The notes below the pieces were generated by a model. It had not been told where the DNA came from and made no database searches. It saw only the letters and a list, made by a program, of their open reading frames with translations. This document shows, piece by piece, positions 15,552 through 56,031 of a DNA stretch of 64,000 nt; positions within the stretch are counted from its first letter, which is position 1; each line of letters starts with the position of its first letter. The position numbers and the translations under genes were made by a program. The DNA comes from Eledone cirrhosa (Eukaryota): positions 121,830,001-121,894,000 of the forward strand of contig OZ024742.1 of assembly GCA_964016885.1 (NCBI GenBank), given 5' to 3'.

Positions 15552-16212
15552 ATATATATATATAAATGGAATAGAATGAAACGAAATTTCATTTCTCACT
15601 CTAAGTACGGCACTTACTTAAATGTAAGTATGTATGTATGTATACGTACATACATATATGTATACAGACGTACAGTAGTATGTATATATATACATACATG
15701 CACATATATATATATATATGCACGTATCGGTTTACCGAACATTTATTATAATGCTCGGTTTGTTTGTTTGAAAACAAACAAACAGCCCGAATTACGCCGT
15801 ACAGTGTTTAGGCAACCACGTTACCTTTTTGTTCAACATTGACACAGGAACGATATACTAGTTTCAAGGTTATTAGCTATCGTCAGCATCGTATACCTTC
15901 CTGCCAGATAGTTGAACGTCTGAAAGTATATACTTTCCTTATGCATATTAACGGCTGAGCAGCCTAATTTGCATATCGAGTGAGTTCAGTCGTCCGGGCA
16001 CACCGCAAACGATAAATGGAATAGAATGAAACGAAATTTCATTTCTCACTCTTAGTACGGCACTTACTTAAATGTAAGTATGCATGTATACGTATATACA
16101 TATATGTATACAGACGTACAGTAGCATGTATATATATACATACATGCACACATATATATATACACGTATCGGTTTACCGAACATTTATTATAATGCTCGG
16201 TTTGTTTGTTTG
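15552..16212 (-). mobile_element. Tandem ~460-bp hammerhead-containing repeat (retrozyme-like), about 1.4 units
   Basis: ataaatggaatagaatgaaacgaaatttc recurs at 15552 and 16012. There is an HHR on the minus strand and (TA)n flanks. Confidence 0.75.
15850..15892 (-). ncRNA. Type-I hammerhead ribozyme motif
   Basis: acgatg-CTGACGA-tagctaataacctt-GAAA-ctagt-A-tatcgt, with palindromic stem III ACTAGT and a weak stem II. Confidence 0.7.
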
Positions 16213-23340: not shown

Positions 23341-23571
23341 GAGTTAATCAAGATTCAATGAGTACATCAAAGAATGAGTTTTACAGTAGATAGGAAGCAC
23401 TCTACATAAAAACTTTTCCAGAGTTATTAATATTTAAATACAAATATTAATAAAATAGATGTTCTTTTACATCAATTAAATTTTATTATACATATTTCGG
23501 AGGATTTAATCAAGGTACCTTGATTAAATCTTAACCATTTAACATCTCAGGGTATGTCATGTATCATTATA

Positions 23572-23620
23572 TTTTGTCTGATGAGGACGTACTGTTGTAC
23601 CTCCGAAATATGTATAATAA
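23572..23620 (+). ncRNA. Type-I hammerhead motif
   Basis: ttgt-CTGATGA-ggacgtac tgtt gtacctcc-GAAA-tatgtat-A-ataa. Confidence 0.7.
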
Positions 23621-23730
23621 CATTTTATTGATCAAAAGAACATTTATTTTATTAATATTTGTATTTTAATATTATATATATATATATACGATATTAACAA
23701 ATGGAAACTATATTTATAAAACCATATTTA

Positions 23731-23791
23731 TTTTATTATACATATTTCAAGGACACCAGGTTAAATTATGGTGTGCTTTCATCAGACAAAA
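23731..23791 (-). ncRNA. Type-I hammerhead motif
   Basis: ttttgt-CTGATGA-aagcacacca..tggtgtcctt-GAAA-tatgtat-A-ataaaa. It has the same flanks as 23572 but a different, still paired stem II. Confidence 0.7.
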
Positions 23792-24119
23792 TACAATATA
23801 GATCAGTTTTATAAATAAATATTGACATACCCTTAAAAAATGCAACCATTACTGTTGGAAGCTCCCGGATAGTGGAGTTGTTTACTTATATTATTATTAG
23901 TATTGGATATTTTAAAATAAGTCGTTGGGTTAGAGAGAAAGAAAGAGAGAGAGAAAAAGACAGAGAAAAGAAAGAAAAAAAAAGAAAAAAAGAAAGAAAA
24001 GAGAGTGAGAGATACCAAAACAACAGAGAGAGAAAAATATAGAGGTAGAGAGGGGACAGAGAGAAGGGGAGAGAACGAAAACATTAAGTCATCAATCGGA
24101 GATGACTTGTTAGGAAGGC

Positions 24120-30455: not shown

Positions 30456-30499
<44 letters not shown>

Positions 30500-30503
<4 letters not shown>

Positions 30504-30825
30504 GGAAAAAAATGAAACAAAATTTCATTTCCCACTCCCAGTACGGCTGTTACTTAAATATAAGTATGTACACGTACATACATATATGTATACAGACGCA
30601 CAGTAGTATGTATATATATATACATACATGCACACATATATATATATGTACGTATGGATTCACCGAACATTTATTGTAATGCTCGGTGTGTTTGTAAGCA
30701 TTATAATAAATGTTCGGTGAATCCATACGTACATATATATATGTGTGCATGTATGTATATATATATATACATACTACTGTGCGTCTGTATACATATATGT
30801 ATGTACGTGTACATACTTATATATA
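30500..30825. repeat. Fold-back fragment of the 460-bp family
   Basis: Homologous to 15560-15760. IR arms lie at ~30560-30683 and 30698-30822. Confidence 0.75.
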
Positions 30826-30831
30826 TATATA

Positions 30832-34630
<3,799 letters not shown>

Positions 34631-41620: not shown

Positions 41621-42807
41621 TTTTCTCTTTCTCTTAATTTCGAGTATATTTTTTTTGACCGGCCACCTTCCTGGTGGCAAGGTTGTAAAAGAAAAGAAAT
41701 TGTCATCCCTTGAATCGCAAGAATGTTTTGCATATTTTGAAGGTGCCAGCTATCGCAGCCATTTGTAGACTATGAATTAGGGAGCTGGGCTTTTTGTCCG
41801 CAAATCCAAGTTCGGTCATACTTTGGTCCAAGCGGGTTGGTATATAACCCGTAGCACCAATAATGATGGGTATGAAGCTAAAGGTGTATCTTGGATACTG
41901 GATTTGTAAGCTCCTCATCAATGGTCCGTAGATGTCCTCCTTCTCCTGTATTTTTCTGACAACGTTTACATCAAGTGGGCAACTGATCTCCACAACAGAA
42001 CACGTGTTCAATGTGTGGTCCCAAACTACAATATCAGGCCGGTTGTGCTTTAATTTGGTGGCAGTTTTTATTTTCAGGTTCCACCAGTATTCCTTAGTGC
42101 CATCTGTCTCAATATATTCTTCCTCGTTTGTTGTTAATTTTGTTTTCCGAAGTGCGTTCCAGATAGTTCTAGCTATCCCATCGTGTCTCATGGGGAGGTA
42201 GTAGCGAGATGACATTCTTTCGCAGCTGGCAACAATGTGGCTTACATCCTCGATCTTTGTTTTACATAGCCTACATTTATTGTCAGCTGCTGGCCCTCCT
42301 CTTTTGTGCAGCAGATATTTGGTAGGGAGTTCTTGTTCCTGTATTGCATAGAGATATCCCTCAAGGTGTGATGTCATAAACTTGTCGGAACTCCATGCCA
42401 GGCTTTTTGAGTGGTTTATCCCCTCTATGGTCTGTGTTTTACGCCTCAAGTATCCATGCACAACTTTCTCTGTAAATTGGTCAATTTTTTTTTCTTGTTT
42501 GAACATTGAATAGGATCTTCCGATTTCTCTGGGTGAGAGATTTATATCAGGCTTTATTCCATATCTCTCCTCCAGATCAGTCGCTATTCTAATGATATTT
42601 CTTTTTTCATGCTCATAAACCTGAGCAAGATGGTCGCCAACCTTTTTCCTCTGTTGAAGGTGTTGCTTCAGTGTTACTATCCGGGTCTCATATGTTGTTA
42701 ATATTGATTTTAGACCCCGGCCACCTTCCTTGCGTGAGAAGTATAGCCTATCCACATCACCATTGATGTTAAAGTTCCCAGTAACACTGAGAAGTTTTCG
42801 AGTTCTA
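41621..42807 (-). mobile_element. 5'-truncated copy of the young R4/Dong element
   Basis: Near-identical to 42870-44057 apart from a few SNPs, and bounded on both sides by (TATG)n. Confidence 0.93.
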
Positions 42808-42869
42808 TGTATGTATGTATGTATGTATGTATGTATGTATGTATGTATGTATGTATGTATGTATGTATG

Positions 42870-45800
42870 TTTTCTCTTTCTCTTAATTTCGAGTATATTT
42901 TTTTGACCGGCCACCTTCCTGGTGGCAAGGTTGTAAAAGAAAAGAAATTGTCATCCCTTGAATTGCAAGAATGTTTTGCATATTTTGAAGGTGCCAGCTA
43001 TCGCAGCCATTTGTAGACTATGAATTAGGGAGCTGCGCTTTTTGTCCGCAAATCCAAGTTCGGTCATACTTTGGTCCAAGCGGGTTGGTATATAGCCCGT
43101 AGCACCAATAATGATGGGTATGAAGCTAAAGGTGTATCTTGGATACTGGATTTGTAAGCTCCTCATCAATGGTCCGTAGATGTCCTCCTTCTCCTGTATT
43201 TTTCTGACAACGTTTACATCAAGTGGGCAGCTGATCTCCACAACAGAGCACGTTTTCAATGTGTGGTCCCAAACTACAATATCAGGCCGGTTGTGCTTTA
43301 ATTTGGTGGCAGTTTTTATTTTCAGGTTCCACCAGTATTCCTTAGTGCCATCTGTCTCAATATATTCTTCCTCGTTTGTTGTTAATTTTGTTTTCCGAAG
43401 TGCGTTCCAGATAGTTCTAGCTATCCCATCGTGTCTCATGGGGAGGTAGTAGCGAGATGACATTCTTTCGCAGCTGGCAACAATGTGGCTTACATCCTCG
43501 ATCTTTGTTTTACATAGCCTACATTTATTGTCAGCTGCTGGCCCTCCTCTTTTGTGCAGCAGATATTTGGTAGGGAGTTCTTGTTCCTGTATTGCATAGA
43601 GATATCCCTCAAGGTGTGATGTCATAAACTTGTCGGAACTCCATGCCAGGCTTTTTGAGTGGTTTATCCCCTCTATGGTCTGTGTTTTACGCCTCAAGTA
43701 TCCATGCACAACTTTCTCTGTAAATTGGTCAATTTTTTTTTCTTGTTTGAACATTGAATAGGATCTTCCGATTTCTCTGGGTGAGAGATTTATATCAGGC
43801 TTTATTCCATATCTCTCCTCCAGATCAGTCGCTATTCTAATGATATTTCTTTTTTCATGCTCATAAACCTGAGCAAGATGGTCGCCAACCTTTTTCCTCT
43901 GTTGAAGGTGTTGCTTCAGTGTTACTATCCGGGTCTCATATGTTGTTAATATTGATTTTAGACCCCGGCCACCTTCCTTGCGTGAGAAGTATAGCCTATC
44001 CACATCACCATTGATGTTAAAGTTCCCAGTAACACTGAGAAGTTTTCGAGTTCTAACATCCATCTCACTTAGTTCTTGCAATGACCAGTTCAGTAGGCCA
44101 AATGTTGGCGTTAGAATTGGCACAGCATAGGTATTGTGGGCAATGTATTTGTTGTATGCTGACAGTTCTGATGACCATATTTTTTTTACTCTTCTGAGGT
44201 ATTCAGTTCTGGTTCTCTCCTTATTTATGGGTCCATCATATCTGACATTCTCATCCTGTCCAAGATATCTGTAGTTGTCACCTGACTGCAGAGGTTGTAT
44301 TGTCAGGCCGTTCATCTCTAGATTTCTAGAGGAGGGCACAGCTCTTCCACGTTTTACTGCCAAATATGCACACTTGGACTCACCAAATTTCATTTTGATG
44401 TCGGTTGAAAATTGTGTAATGAGGTCCAATTGTTTCTTGATGTCATTGATATTTGGCCCATACAACTTCAGGTCATCAACAAAGAAAAGATGGGAGATAC
44501 TTCTGGGCCCACTTCTTTGTCCACCTTGTTTCCTGAGTAGGTAAGATAGTGGATTCAGTGAGAGAACGAAGAGTAGTACTGACAAGCTATCACCCTGAAA
44601 GATGCCCTTCTGGTAATGTATCCCATCAGTCTTAACCTGCTCCTTCTCACCTCTAAGGATCAAATTGGTGTACCAGTTCTTGGTCAGGCGTTCAACAGCA
44701 GCTACTAATGGTTGTGGGACTTTAGCTAACTGTAAAGCCTTAATAATCCACCCATGAGGTACACTATCAAATGCTTTTTGATAGTCCAGCCACACGACAG
44801 TCATGTTTCTGCGATTCTTTGTTGTTTTTTCCTGAATCATTTTGTTAGTTAGTAGGTGATCTATGCAACCCCACACCTCCCTCTTTCCACCAGCTTGCTC
44901 AGGTGTTATGATGTTGTTGGTAGCACAGTGATCCTGTAAGAACAGGTTAAGGCACCCAGTATATAATTTATACATGATGTTTTGGCAGGCAATTGGGCGG
45001 TAATTTTTAGCAAGGGTGGTTTGGCTATTTTTGGGAATGAGGAGAGTAGTGGCAGTTGATAACCATCTGGGCAGTTCTTGTGTGCCCTTAATGGTTTCTG
45101 TAAACAGCCGTATGAGATCTTGCCGATAGAAAGTGAAATTCTTCAACCAGTATCCTGTAATGAGGTCTGGGCCTGGCGATTTCCTATTCGACATTTTCTG
45201 TAGAGCTGTTTCCAGTATTGACCCATCTATGTCATATTGTTTTGTCTGGACATGTTGGCAGTAGTCCTGTTCCAGTTGTTTTAGCCAATTAGCTTGTCTG
45301 TTGAATCCGTCATCCGTTTCTCATACAGATCTCCAGTAGTTCTCAACCTGTTCTTTTGAAGGGGTGTCGTTTACAGGGATTGAACTTTTGCCACCGAAGC
45401 TGCGATAAACTGATTTAGGATCTCTGGCAAACAATCTATTTAGCACTTGTCGTTTATGGGCTGTTGACTTATATTTTAGTCTTTCTGTTGTAGCTGTGAG
45501 TTGTTGTTTCAACTGGTGTAATTTGGAGTTCAAAGTTTTAAATTTGGTATCTCCAAATCGTCTCTCTAACTTTTTCTTTAGGTCTTCCTGGTGTCGTGTG
45601 AAGTTTCTCTCTATGTTGCATTTCATAACGACTGCGATGTGTGAGATACTTCGTCTCAGGGACAAAATTTTGGTTTTTAAATTTCGCATCCACGCTGGTT
45701 CAGGCTTTCTGTTTGTATCTTGATTGCGTGGTTTTAGATGTGTGTTATATGATAGCAATGTGACAGCTGAAACATATAACAAAACATTGAGCGTTTCAAA

Positions 45801-46668
45801 TGTCGTTTCTACACCTTTAGATCGTATAGCCTTCAGATAATTGCCAGCTATTTCGTTCACCGCTTCCAATTCCAATTTAGTGGGTTCTTTACTGACTCTA
45901 GTGTTGTATGGTCTGTCACTCACATTAAGGCTGTGTATCTCTTGAAACATATCGTTCCATATCACTTGTAGGGTGCCCACAAGTTTTTGGTGCTCTGTTT
46001 GTTCAGTAGAGTCATGAATTGCAGCCTCGTTGTTGATGTGGTGACAATTACTACTAGAGTCAGCTGACCTTTCTCGCTGTTCTTCAGTGGAAGTGGGATG
46101 GATTTCAGCAAAATTGTTGGTGAGCTGTTCACTGTTAGATTTAGCTGGCCATTCTCTTTGTCTGTCAGTGGAGGTGGGGTGGTTGTCTACAAGGGCTGTA
46201 TTTGTAGTATCACTCGATTCCGTTAGATGTATCAATTTACATCTAATGATACGTTTTGCCTGTTCATTTAGATGCTTTGGAGAAAAGTCTAATTCTGGGT
46301 GTTTGGAGTTCCATAAAGTTTTTAGCCTTTGCATAAAACCGAACTTTTGGGGTTCAGATTGTTTGTATGCTTCATATAATTCTTTGTTAAGCTCGTAGCT
46401 CCACTGTATACAACGGTTGTAATTGCGATTTGGTCGAAGGAGACTTGTACTTTTTGCCATGATGAGTTCGTCTATTCACTAATATTTTGTATTTATTTTT
46501 TTAAAATAGTCGATGATCTTCTTTAAAAGTTACGACAAAGTTCTGTCAGAATCAAATTTAAAGTTATTCACAGCTTGGGTAATATTTCTTTTCAGTTAGT
46601 TTTAAATTCTACAACTGTGTTTTAAACGTTGTTCTTGAATCGTTTGAATCGAGAACAAAAAGAACCGT
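42870..46668 (-). mobile_element. Full-length R4/Dong-clade non-LTR retrotransposon in a (CATA)n microsatellite
   Basis: Single reading frame with RT and REL endonuclease, and (TATG)n on both sides. The 3' UTR has the hairpin gccacc-aggaa-ggtggc. Confidence 0.93.
42951..46460 (-). pseudogene. R4/Dong ORF (1170 codons): RT, CCHC knuckle and restriction-like endonuclease, with one in-frame TGA at 45321-45323
   Basis: The 379-aa and 747-aa ORFs are in one frame, joined by YWRSV*ETDDGFNRQANWLK. Motifs include KSPGPD, NYRPI, WLDYQKAFDSV, GIFQGDSLS, FFVDDLK, CRLC..EDVSHIVASC, RHD, RPDIV and EISCP..EKEDIY. Confidence 0.9.
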
Positions 46669-51373: not shown

Positions 51374-52779
51374 GTATGTATGTATGTATGTATGTACGTA
51401 TGTATGTATGTATGTATGTATGTATGTATGTTTGTGTGTATCTGTGCGTGAGTGTGTGTGTGTATGTTTGCATGTGTCTGTGAATGTCTATGTGTTTATG
51501 TATGTGTATATAAATTGAGAGTGATATAGATAGATAGACAGTCAGACACATAAATAAATAGATAGATAGATATATAGATAGATGGCTAGATATATTGATG
51601 GATATGTTGGTAGAAAAATATATTTGTCAACATACGAACATCAAACACATGTACAGGCAGACGCAGACAGATAAAGACTTTTAATTTCGCATGCATCCTG
51701 TCTCACAAGCAAAGATAATTATATGGTCTGAAGGTGCGACAAATATAAGATGTAAGTATAGGAGGCACCTAGGTTTCGGTGTAGTGGTAGACTATGTGAG
51801 GATGTCAATGGGGGTGTTACTCTAAGCAAGTTAAATCATGTTAGCTGTGGTGATAATTATAGATTTCTATAGGTGAAAGATGATCAGTAATCAGAAGATG
51901 ATTAATCACATGTATAGTGTTATAAGGCACCTTAAGAAAGGAGTGCTGTTAATAAGAATGGTTAGTTTTAGTGGACCATTAGATAATAGAATAAGTGAGA
52001 GAGTTAATGGAGGTGTAGTGAAACGAAGTATGTACTGGCTAGCTGAATGGAAATTTATAAGTGAAAGGCCATTGTAGTTATAGAGTAATAAGAATGTTTT
52101 CTTGCATGTTGTTTGATGTTCATACCGAAGAAAATCTCAAGTTGGAAATAGTGTCTAATGACAGATGTAAGAGAAACGATAGTGACCGAAATGCTAGCCC
52201 GGTATAAGATGATTTGCTCATTGTATTTTGCGACCAACTCCTCGTTATTTTCACGTCAGACTTCTGTAACAAATTTGGCGCCACGGTTGGACTTGTGTAA
52301 ATTAATCTCTTAAGAGTATATAAAAAATGAATTGCAGTAGAACTGGAGTCATGGAATGCCAAATTTGTGGTACTTTTATTAAGACCGTGCACATTACAAC
52401 TCTGCTCACAGATTGAGGTCTCTCAACACAGATTTGTAATTTATGTAGTCTTAATAAAATTACTACTAAAAAGAATATATATATATGTATGCATATATAT
52501 GTATATATATACATATGTACATATATACATATGTACACATATATATATATATATAAACAATTAAGTTAAAAATGTACATCTACATATGCATACTGAAATA
52601 CTAGTATGCATATGAATACACACACGTATACATATGTAGATGTAACAAGTCTTTCACTGGTTACTTTACTGTGAGTAACCCAGCTATTCTGTATGTAAAC
52701 ACACAGACAAACCGGTTTTAGAGTCATACTGGTTTTCGAGGAAACACCTTTCCTCTATTCTCCAGAAAGCCAGAAAAGG

Positions 52780-52824
52780 AACATTGAACTAGTTTCGTTG
52801 TTGTTACAACTCATCAGCAATATT
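52780..52824 (-). ncRNA. Type-I hammerhead ribozyme
   Basis: Reverse complement of 53372-53416. Confidence 0.85.
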
Positions 52825-53371
52825 TACCTATCTACCGGCCTTTCTGGAGAATCGTAAAAGCACATATCGTTATATGCTTTTTCTATGAAAATTAGTAGTG
52901 GGCAGACCAATTTGCATAGAGTGTGAGTACGCACCGGTTCAGCGGAGACGATAAAAACAAATAACGAAACGAAATTAAATTTCGTTTCGTTTGTAACTCA
53001 CTTTTGTATGACTGACGCTTAAACAATTAAGTTAAAAATGTACATCTACATATGCATACTGAAATACTAGTATGCATATGAATACACACACGTATACATA
53101 TGTAGATGTAACAAGTCTTTCACTGGTTACTTTACTGTGAGTAACCCAGCTATTCTGTATGTAAACACACAGACATCACGTCAGTCATACAAAAGTGAGT
53201 TACAAACGAAACGAAATTTAATTTCGTTTCGTTATTTGTTTTTATCGTCTCCGCTGAACCGGTGCGTACTCACACTCTATGCAAATTGGTCTGCCCACTA
53301 CTAATTTTCATAGAAAAAGCATATAACGATATGTGCTTTTACGATTCTCCAGAAAGGCCGGTAGATAGGTA

Positions 53372-53416
53372 AATATTGCTGATGAGTTGTAACAACAACG
53401 AAACTAGTTCAATGTT
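53372..53416 (+). ncRNA. Type-I hammerhead ribozyme, canonical core
   Basis: aatattg-CTGATGA-gttgt aaca acaac-GAAA-ctagt-T-caatgtt, with extended stem attctccagaaag/ctttctggagaat. Confidence 0.85.
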
Positions 53417-53704
53417 CCTTTTCTGGCTTTCTGGAGAATAGAGGAAAGGTGTTTCCTCGAAAACCAGTATGACTCTAAAAACCGGTTTGTCTGTGTGTTT
53501 ACATACAGAATAGCTGGGTTACTCACAGTAAAGTAACCAGTGAAAGACTTGTTACATCTACATATGTATACGTGTGTGTATTCATATGCATACTAGTATT
53601 TCAGTATGCATATGTAGATGTACATTTTTAATTTAATTGTTTAAGCGTCAGTCATACAAAAGTGAGTTACAAACGTAACGAAATTTAATTTCGTTTCGTT
53701 ATTT

Positions 53705-53761
<57 letters not shown>

Positions 53762-55739: not shown

Positions 55740-55931
55740 CGAAGGAAATGTGGTAAGGAACCAGGTGGACCATAACGCACCGAAGTACTCAATACTTGAG
55801 GTAGTAGAGTGGATAATAGGAACCAGTAAGACCCCGACAGCTGAGCTCAAGCCGTTTCGACGGCTAATTCTAAGAGTCCAGAATTAGCCGTCGAAACGGC
55901 TTGAGCTCAGCTGTCGGGGTCTTACTGGTTC
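55740..55931. repeat. Short element with a perfect 52-bp inverted repeat (AGTACTCAATAC family)
   Basis: Arms 55820-55871 and 55880-55931, 8-nt loop, (TA)n flanks. Confidence 0.85.

Positions 55932-56031
<100 letters not shown>

Follow-up and report, generated by a model that had tools for sequence, protein, structure and literature searches.

Non-LTR retrozymes with circular RNAs have been described from coral, mussel and axolotl, with sizes given as 170-400 nt in one source (PMC7229834) and as 51-972 bp in another (10.64898/2026.07.22.740005). For their return to DNA, mobilisation by Penelope-like elements (PLEs) and the synthesis of tandem cDNA from circles have been put forward as a hypothesis (PMC7229834), and retrozymes have been tied by homology to PLE pseudo-LTRs in a text that calls the mechanism open (10.64898/2026.07.22.740005). 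PLE copies are described as partly tandem, with a truncated copy in inverse orientation, a tail confined to one end and a bias towards (TA)n (PMC8557442). In vitro, the tail lies between two reverse transcription start sites, and the PLE protein cleaves both DNA strands and extends them; its main substrate is uncut RNA, and insertion persists with ribozyme mutants (PMC11167929).

We analysed a 64,000-nt stretch of the Eledone cirrhosa genome (contig OZ024742.1; hereafter the window), in which an earlier note made from the sequence alone had picked out a two-armed hammerhead element. This focal element occupies 52554-53712, with TA tracts on either side, and no open reading frame of at least 150 amino acids lies over it. 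Monomer position 1 corresponds to window position 53179, the plus strand being the hammerhead sense; end site A denotes monomer 60-70 and end site B monomer 455-467. The parts are as follows.

52475-52555, no strand: degenerate (TA)n tract, left target flank (TA-rich sequence; nearly all copies run on from their 3' end into (TA)n)
52554-53175, minus strand: left arm, 622 nt, running through monomer 310-467 and then 1-465, with its outer 3' end at site B
52780-52824, minus strand: left-arm type I hammerhead, with cleavage predicted after 52787 of this strand (motif identical to that of the right arm)
53176-53178, no strand: 5'-to-5' arm junction, three bases matching neither arm
53179-53712, plus strand: right arm, 534 nt, running through monomer 1-467 and then 1-67, with its outer 3' end at site A
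53204-53233, plus strand: long hairpin directly upstream of end site A (predicted fold; conserved in the sister family described below)
53344-53438, plus strand: long stem bearing the hammerhead (predicted fold)
53372-53416, plus strand: type I hammerhead of the right arm (motif, core invariance, covariation)
53643-53712, plus strand: outer 3' segment of the right arm (mapped copy ends; compare PMC8557442, PMC11167929)
53708-53755, no strand: (TA)24, right target flank

The arms are 99% complementary and meet 5'-to-5' over the 3-nt junction, which bears out the earlier description of two divergent, near-identical arms and places them in (TA)n. Each is indeed just over one monomer long (1.33 units on the left and 1.14 on the right); the period of 465 bp given at first is corrected to 466 in the left arm, where one base is missing, and 467 in the right. 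The monomer is 467 nt long, 36% GC, non-coding and without LTRs. Its size, first thought large for a metazoan non-LTR retrozyme, is unremarkable, since 467 nt is above the 170-400 nt range yet inside the published 51-972 bp. The element resembles metazoan non-LTR retrozymes in having a low-GC, non-coding tandem monomer with a type I hammerhead, self-pairing, no LTR, thousands of copies and PLEs in the same genome, and differs from those described in these sources in its divergent arms, two fixed 3' ends, (TA)n targeting and editing signature (PMC7229834; 10.64898/2026.07.22.740005). Circles have been shown for the coral, mussel and axolotl retrozymes (PMC7229834), whereas for the Eledone family a circle is proposed. 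Whereas 24 of 57 families in Xenopus have a match to a transposable element (10.64898/2026.07.22.740005), the comparison here found no PLE pseudo-LTR homologous to the element. Plant LTR retrozymes have LTRs, type III hammerheads and a 4-bp target duplication, in contrast to the type I hammerhead and lack of LTRs in this element, in which a duplication is not discernible within (TA)n. A literature search, mostly of openly accessible main texts, found neither this family nor retrozyme insertions that are two-armed, tailed and edited.

Judged by its motif, the repeated stretch is a type I hammerhead, present in every unit and predicted to cleave itself. In the right arm CUGAUGA lies at 53379-53385 and GAAA at 53400-53403, with a predicted cut after U53409 (GUU); the canonical CUGAUGA hammerhead atop a long stem, as first reported, is present in both arms. 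Stem I has 7 bp, stem II 5 bp and stem III 2 bp, the last with a palindrome, AACUAGUU, able to pair between two copies (predicted duplex -8.0 kcal/mol). Metazoan motifs that cut as dimers share such a short palindromic helix III (PMC4209133), and the 2-bp helix III, palindromic loop and predicted dimer cutting are likewise found in newt satellite 2 and the axolotl retrozymes (PMC7229834, PMC4209133). Because Rfam at its gathering threshold gave zero matches within the 64-kb window, the hammerhead call is based on the motif together with its invariance and covariation. Both cores, CUGAUGA and GAAA, are unchanged in the majority sequences of 119-120 of 120 loci; GUU serves as the cut triplet in 90 loci and GUC in 30, and the stem II pair 209/220 is swapped from U-A to A-U in 39. 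Across this family and its sister, both sides have changed in 7 of 14 hammerhead pairs, with covariation in stems I and II; this count comes from three copies each of two families, six related sequences, and hence carries no probability.

The hammerhead-plus-stem region (53340-53440) has a fold z-score of -5.8. For the whole monomer the predicted fold is -161.7 kcal/mol (z -10.9, with 0 of 100 shuffles as good), and a circular fold is predicted at z -13.7 against 40 shuffles. All five hairpins named in the earlier note occur in the predicted monomer fold. Outside the ribozyme, lineage changes in predicted pairs kept the pairing in 26 cases and broke it in 25; variation thus backs the complete fold only in part.

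A 39-nt stretch of the ribozyme core has 5,039 exact matches in the 3.0-Gb genome that we probed, against 0 for a control. Counted on the forward strand only, because duplicate entries inflate the reverse-strand figures, there are 1,167 matches to site A with TA after it and 768 to site B. These sequence counts suggest more than 2,000 insertions, among them head-to-tail arrays of up to 31 units, and (TA)n continues beyond the site-A or site-B 3' end in nearly all copies. The family is real, young and abundant, and the original proposal of a young, multi-copy hammerhead retrozyme family copied through RNA is supported. Locus L209 (G000:C1 about 5.738-5.753 Mb) is a 14.6-kb insertion with a 31-unit arm, and a compound locus among the set L209, L264 and L219 carries two different subfamilies side by side. 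Retrozyme families are often nested in one another's (TA)n tails.

The ends of these copies follow a fixed pattern. All 51 loci chosen by similarity or ribozyme, and not by their ends, terminate at A or B, and 28 of the 33 two-armed loci in that set have one end at each. In a larger set, 132 clusters gave 131 insertions after removal of one exact duplicate, 73 regions having been chosen by an A or B end. These comprise 85 two-armed insertions, 45 single-armed ones (31 A, 14 B) and one compound; the two-armed class divides into 72 A/B, 7 A/other, 3 B/other, 2 cut by a region edge and 1 B/B, with no A/A. The 3' ends cluster at monomer 63-68 and 459-465, two sites about 68 nt apart and used one per arm. 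The 5' ends are scattered over the unit (199, from 214 mapped, 15 at the monomer border having been removed as alignment artefacts). Four fall at 228-236 against 3.9 expected, so there is no pile-up at the cleavage site; a mild excess at 19-55 and 243-258 coincides with strong stems. Among the 144 arms in A/B loci, the cleavage site is crossed by 115: once in 65 and at least twice in 50, with a maximum of 31, the other 29 not reaching it.

The scattered circular permutations that the earlier note expected of the copies are therefore not seen, as the 3' ends are fixed at two sites and the 5' ends alone scatter. The permuted look of the arms, taken there as a sign of a circular template, is accounted for by two priming sites together with 5' truncation, as in PLEs, and is not in itself evidence for a circle. 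That note would also have given up its reading if all copies shared fixed ends contiguous with a PLE ORF: the ends are fixed, but none of the 131 mapped insertions extends into a PLE ORF, into other PLE sequence or into coding sequence. Simple fold-back of one cDNA was rejected, since either arm can be the longer (the B arm in 33 of 72).

Young PLE families with open frames of 775 and 781 amino acids are present in the genome in many near-identical copies, the 775-aa frame holding a reverse transcriptase (RT) and a GIY-YIG domain. Copies of the 781-aa family lie in (TA)n as divergent pairs, and all four of the pairs examined (4 of 4) use two end sites, one for each arm. The spacing between end sites is about 107 nt in this family and about 63 nt in the 775-aa family. 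This end pattern, shared with the coding PLEs here and with those in the PLE papers, indicates that the retrozyme behaves like a gene-less PLE. The likeness extends to EN+ PLEs of the Neptune and Hydra clades, with their partial tandems, inverted 5'-truncated arm, one-end tail, two RT starts and (TA)n targets (PMC8557442, PMC11167929) and a hammerhead with a short palindromic helix III (PMC4209133). Unlike the EN+ PLEs described there, the element has no ORF, its unit measures 467 nt against about 3 kb, an arm can hold as many as 31 units, and its tail is about 68 nt long against the published 30-40 nt (PMC8557442, PMC11167929). MRC1 and other non-autonomous Chlamys PLEs of Chlamydomonas are comparable as non-coding dependants with multi-copy head-to-tail insertions in microsatellite targets (PMC8557442). 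Those elements, however, share 3' sequence with an autonomous family and belong to a clade described as mostly without hammerheads (PMC8557442), whereas in the present element conservation is highest in the hammerhead and the partner search gave no match.

The retrozyme was compared with three of the many PLE families in this genome and has no sequence in common with them. BLAST and profile searches of families B and C against the 775-aa and 781-aa PLE loci and 30 GIY-YIG loci returned nested B/C copies only, and a likeness to the 3' end of the third PLE family was dismissed as not above shuffles (2 to 21 of 200). The RT plus GIY-YIG frame that marks an autonomous PLE is missing from the unit and from all 131 insertions, and several features of a non-autonomous PLE are present: two fixed 3' ends, a one-end tail, 5' truncation, an inverted arm and insertion into (TA)n. 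From these sequence features we assign the element with high confidence to the non-LTR retrozymes, as one that very probably works like a non-autonomous PLE.

Two PLEs lie within the window. A young one at 30836-34270 (L162-L177) has RT and GIY-YIG domains in a 775-aa frame that follows an overlapping 409-aa frame. Its family carries the CX4CX2C linker described for Neptune and a hammerhead-like motif with CAGAAGA replacing CUGANGA. The other, at 964-2341 (L148-L161), is Hydra-like, a clade label given by motif likeness; a relative of it has many identical 781-aa copies in divergent pairs and is not recognised by Pfam.

The nature of the template was approached through differences between units. 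Of 32 rare changes found in all of at least three units, 13 are A>G, compared with 21 of 241 single-unit changes (Fisher p 1.2e-5); among the latter, A>G is not in excess (21 A>G against 33 T>C). When 112 loci were each compared with their three nearest neighbours, 74 array-wide differences included 34 A>G and 10 T>C (p 1e-4). Without locus L238 the figures are 24 and 10, and for differences in both arms 17 and 9. Relative to its neighbours, the focal copy carries two A>G changes and one G>T, present in both arms. In L238, 10 of 10 changes from the neighbours are A>G, and seven of these occur in each of the three units; the changes are repeated in the first and last unit, and the signature is found at one genomic locus only. 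Strand-biased, clustered A>G fits A-to-I editing of RNA. The recurrence of the same edits in successive units implies one molecule read repeatedly, for which a circle is the simplest explanation, although units 2 and 3 of L238 have one extra change in common, so that only two passes are safe. The ten A>G of this genome-unique array thus favour repeated copying of one edited RNA monomer. Arrays of 21 and 27 units, which show zero substitutions between units or arms away from the junction, fit a circle too. As A>G turns A-U pairs into G-U with pairing kept, fold selection can strengthen the bias.

We consider a circle the probable template for at least the founding insertions. The focal element is one insertion of a 467-nt retrozyme family that is probably mobilised in trans by a PLE protein with RT and GIY-YIG domains; this protein would prime from either side of a DNA break and probably copies round a circular RNA monomer. 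The circular template of the earlier note stands as likely, while the permutation argument first offered for it is unsupported. Public contigs (run type unstated) cover the monomer, and one of them, 496 nt long, is self-closing, but a tandem array would yield the same, so it is uninformative on circles. At locus L066 (G000:C1 about 56.387-56.398 Mb), a single A>G change is found in 6 of the 12 units of just one arm, with a periodicity of three, which may reflect a trimer template or block duplication.

The same PLE parasite could instead have used an uncut linear multimer transcribed from a genomic array, with DNA-level duplication and conversion giving length and homogeneity and circles arising as by-products. 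We regard this as unlikely, though it is the alternative with most in its favour. Two seemingly private haplotypes are common to several loci (69 matches at 7 places; 286 at many places), in loci whose arms have 17 to 29 units; shared haplotypes in such long, homogeneous arms mean that daughters may come from linear multimers. Locus-private haplotypes were accordingly set aside as proof of a circle, two of the three tested recurring elsewhere and one being unique. In older arrays, variants are shared by subsets of units (9 shared and 7 single in L209; 10 and 41 in L246), so that length can also grow at the DNA level. The idea that longer arrays are younger was unsupported (rho -0.11, n=66).

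Unit-level variants are common to both arms in 6 of 62 testable two-armed loci, in register in L018 and L022, and L018 is chimeric in both arms, with a haplotype switch between 87 and 280. The cross-arm variants and the chimerism fit a heterogeneous linear template or later conversion; a heterodimer circle was rejected for L010 and L018, as the variant order is incompatible. Uncut RNA is also favoured by the PLE in vitro, where ribozyme mutants insert (PMC11167929). If multimers were the template, however, editing would be per unit, yet the A>G excess is confined to array-wide changes; the L238 edits recur in the first and last unit without a genomic source, and the hammerhead core is strongly constrained. 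The circular and linear routes may both operate.

Copying from cut linear monomers, with the RT jumping from the 5' end of one monomer to the 3' end of that monomer or a different one, appears improbable. Locus L117 is chimeric with a switch between 232 and 300, just 3' of the cleavage site, as jumping would give, and the switch of L018 at 87-280 can be read likewise. Against this, 5' ends are not enriched at 228-236, positions 221-232 are invariant or differ as GUU/GUC only in 120 loci, without junction scars, and more than 20 identical units would require repeated jumps to identical molecules. Less probable still, and already largely refuted, is a 5'-truncated pseudo-LTR of a coding PLE, a DNA-recombination satellite or an assembly artefact: truncated PLE copies do typically have inverted, truncated, tailed ends (PMC8557442), and the focal junction is unbridged among the public contigs listed, which proves nothing either way, yet head-to-tail units reach 31 without an ORF, 0 of 131 insertions continue into a PLE, dispersed copies show precise ends and the strand-biased A>G signature, and public contigs contain both the joint between head-to-tail units and the one from site A into (TA)n.

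For the preferred reading, a PLE-mobilised retrozyme copied round a circle, the following cycle can be proposed. Tandem arrays would be transcribed, and neighbouring hammerheads, the motif of which is present in each unit, would pair through the palindromic stem III and release monomers. These would be ligated into circles, some becoming A-to-I edited, as the A>G signature suggests. A PLE endonuclease would open both (TA)n strands, and the 3' ends would prime at A and B, the sites at which the copies end. Each RT would cover from 0.1 to many units, and the cDNAs would join 5'-to-5' to give the divergent arms observed. Later local duplication and conversion, as seen in older arrays, would alter the result. 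Evenly balanced, in our judgement, is a stronger version in which the self-cutting, host-edited 467-nt circle would be an active replicon: a PLE dimer would open (TA)n, send two RTs round one edited circle from two fixed starting points and lay down mirror-image arrays of up to 30 units per event, so that the genome would record both rolling-circle reverse transcription and heritable RNA edits.

The class is already known, but its copies here provide genomic evidence for a proposed step and turn the suggested life cycle into precise predictions. For the return of animal retrozymes to DNA, PLE enzymes have been proposed (PMC7229834; 10.64898/2026.07.22.740005), as has a circular template (PMC7229834), both as hypotheses. 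The present family predicts two start sites, a (TA)n target and a defined RNA, with young coding PLEs as candidate enzymes, and these exact predictions, together with the published in vitro PLE assay, make the return step open to reconstitution. The family is, in addition, a minimal and protein-free substrate for the tandem and inverted structure of PLE insertions, which is unexplained, and its A>G patterns suggest that RNA edits become fixed in the genome by the retrozyme route.

Newt satellite 2 has an snRNA-type internal promoter. Such a promoter is unsupported in the Eledone monomer, which matches host U1/U2 upstream elements no better than shuffles do. The host U1/U2 upstream regions have TCAGT near -56 and a TATA-like box near -30, and no octamer. 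The host U1 and U2 genes (L281-L320) also share a TTACCTCCCTT motif near -260.

Further elements occur elsewhere in the window. The sister family, of about 430 nt, is present at 15562-16169 and 30498-30830 (also L127:2826-3260) and is colinear with the monomer at roughly 65% identity. It has the identical stem III palindrome, a GUA cut triplet and analogous (TA)n ends. An unrelated short family beside a (TA)n tract at 23480-23840 contains two hammerheads (CUGAUGA at 23578 on the plus strand and 23785 on the minus strand), and motifs like these recur in many of the loci examined. At 41703-46475 lies a non-LTR retrotransposon whose RT frame is long and whose 3' part is duplicated. Finally, a 56-bp perfect inverted repeat between (TA)n tracts at 55816-55935 interrupts an RT fragment and possibly represents the ends of another two-armed element.
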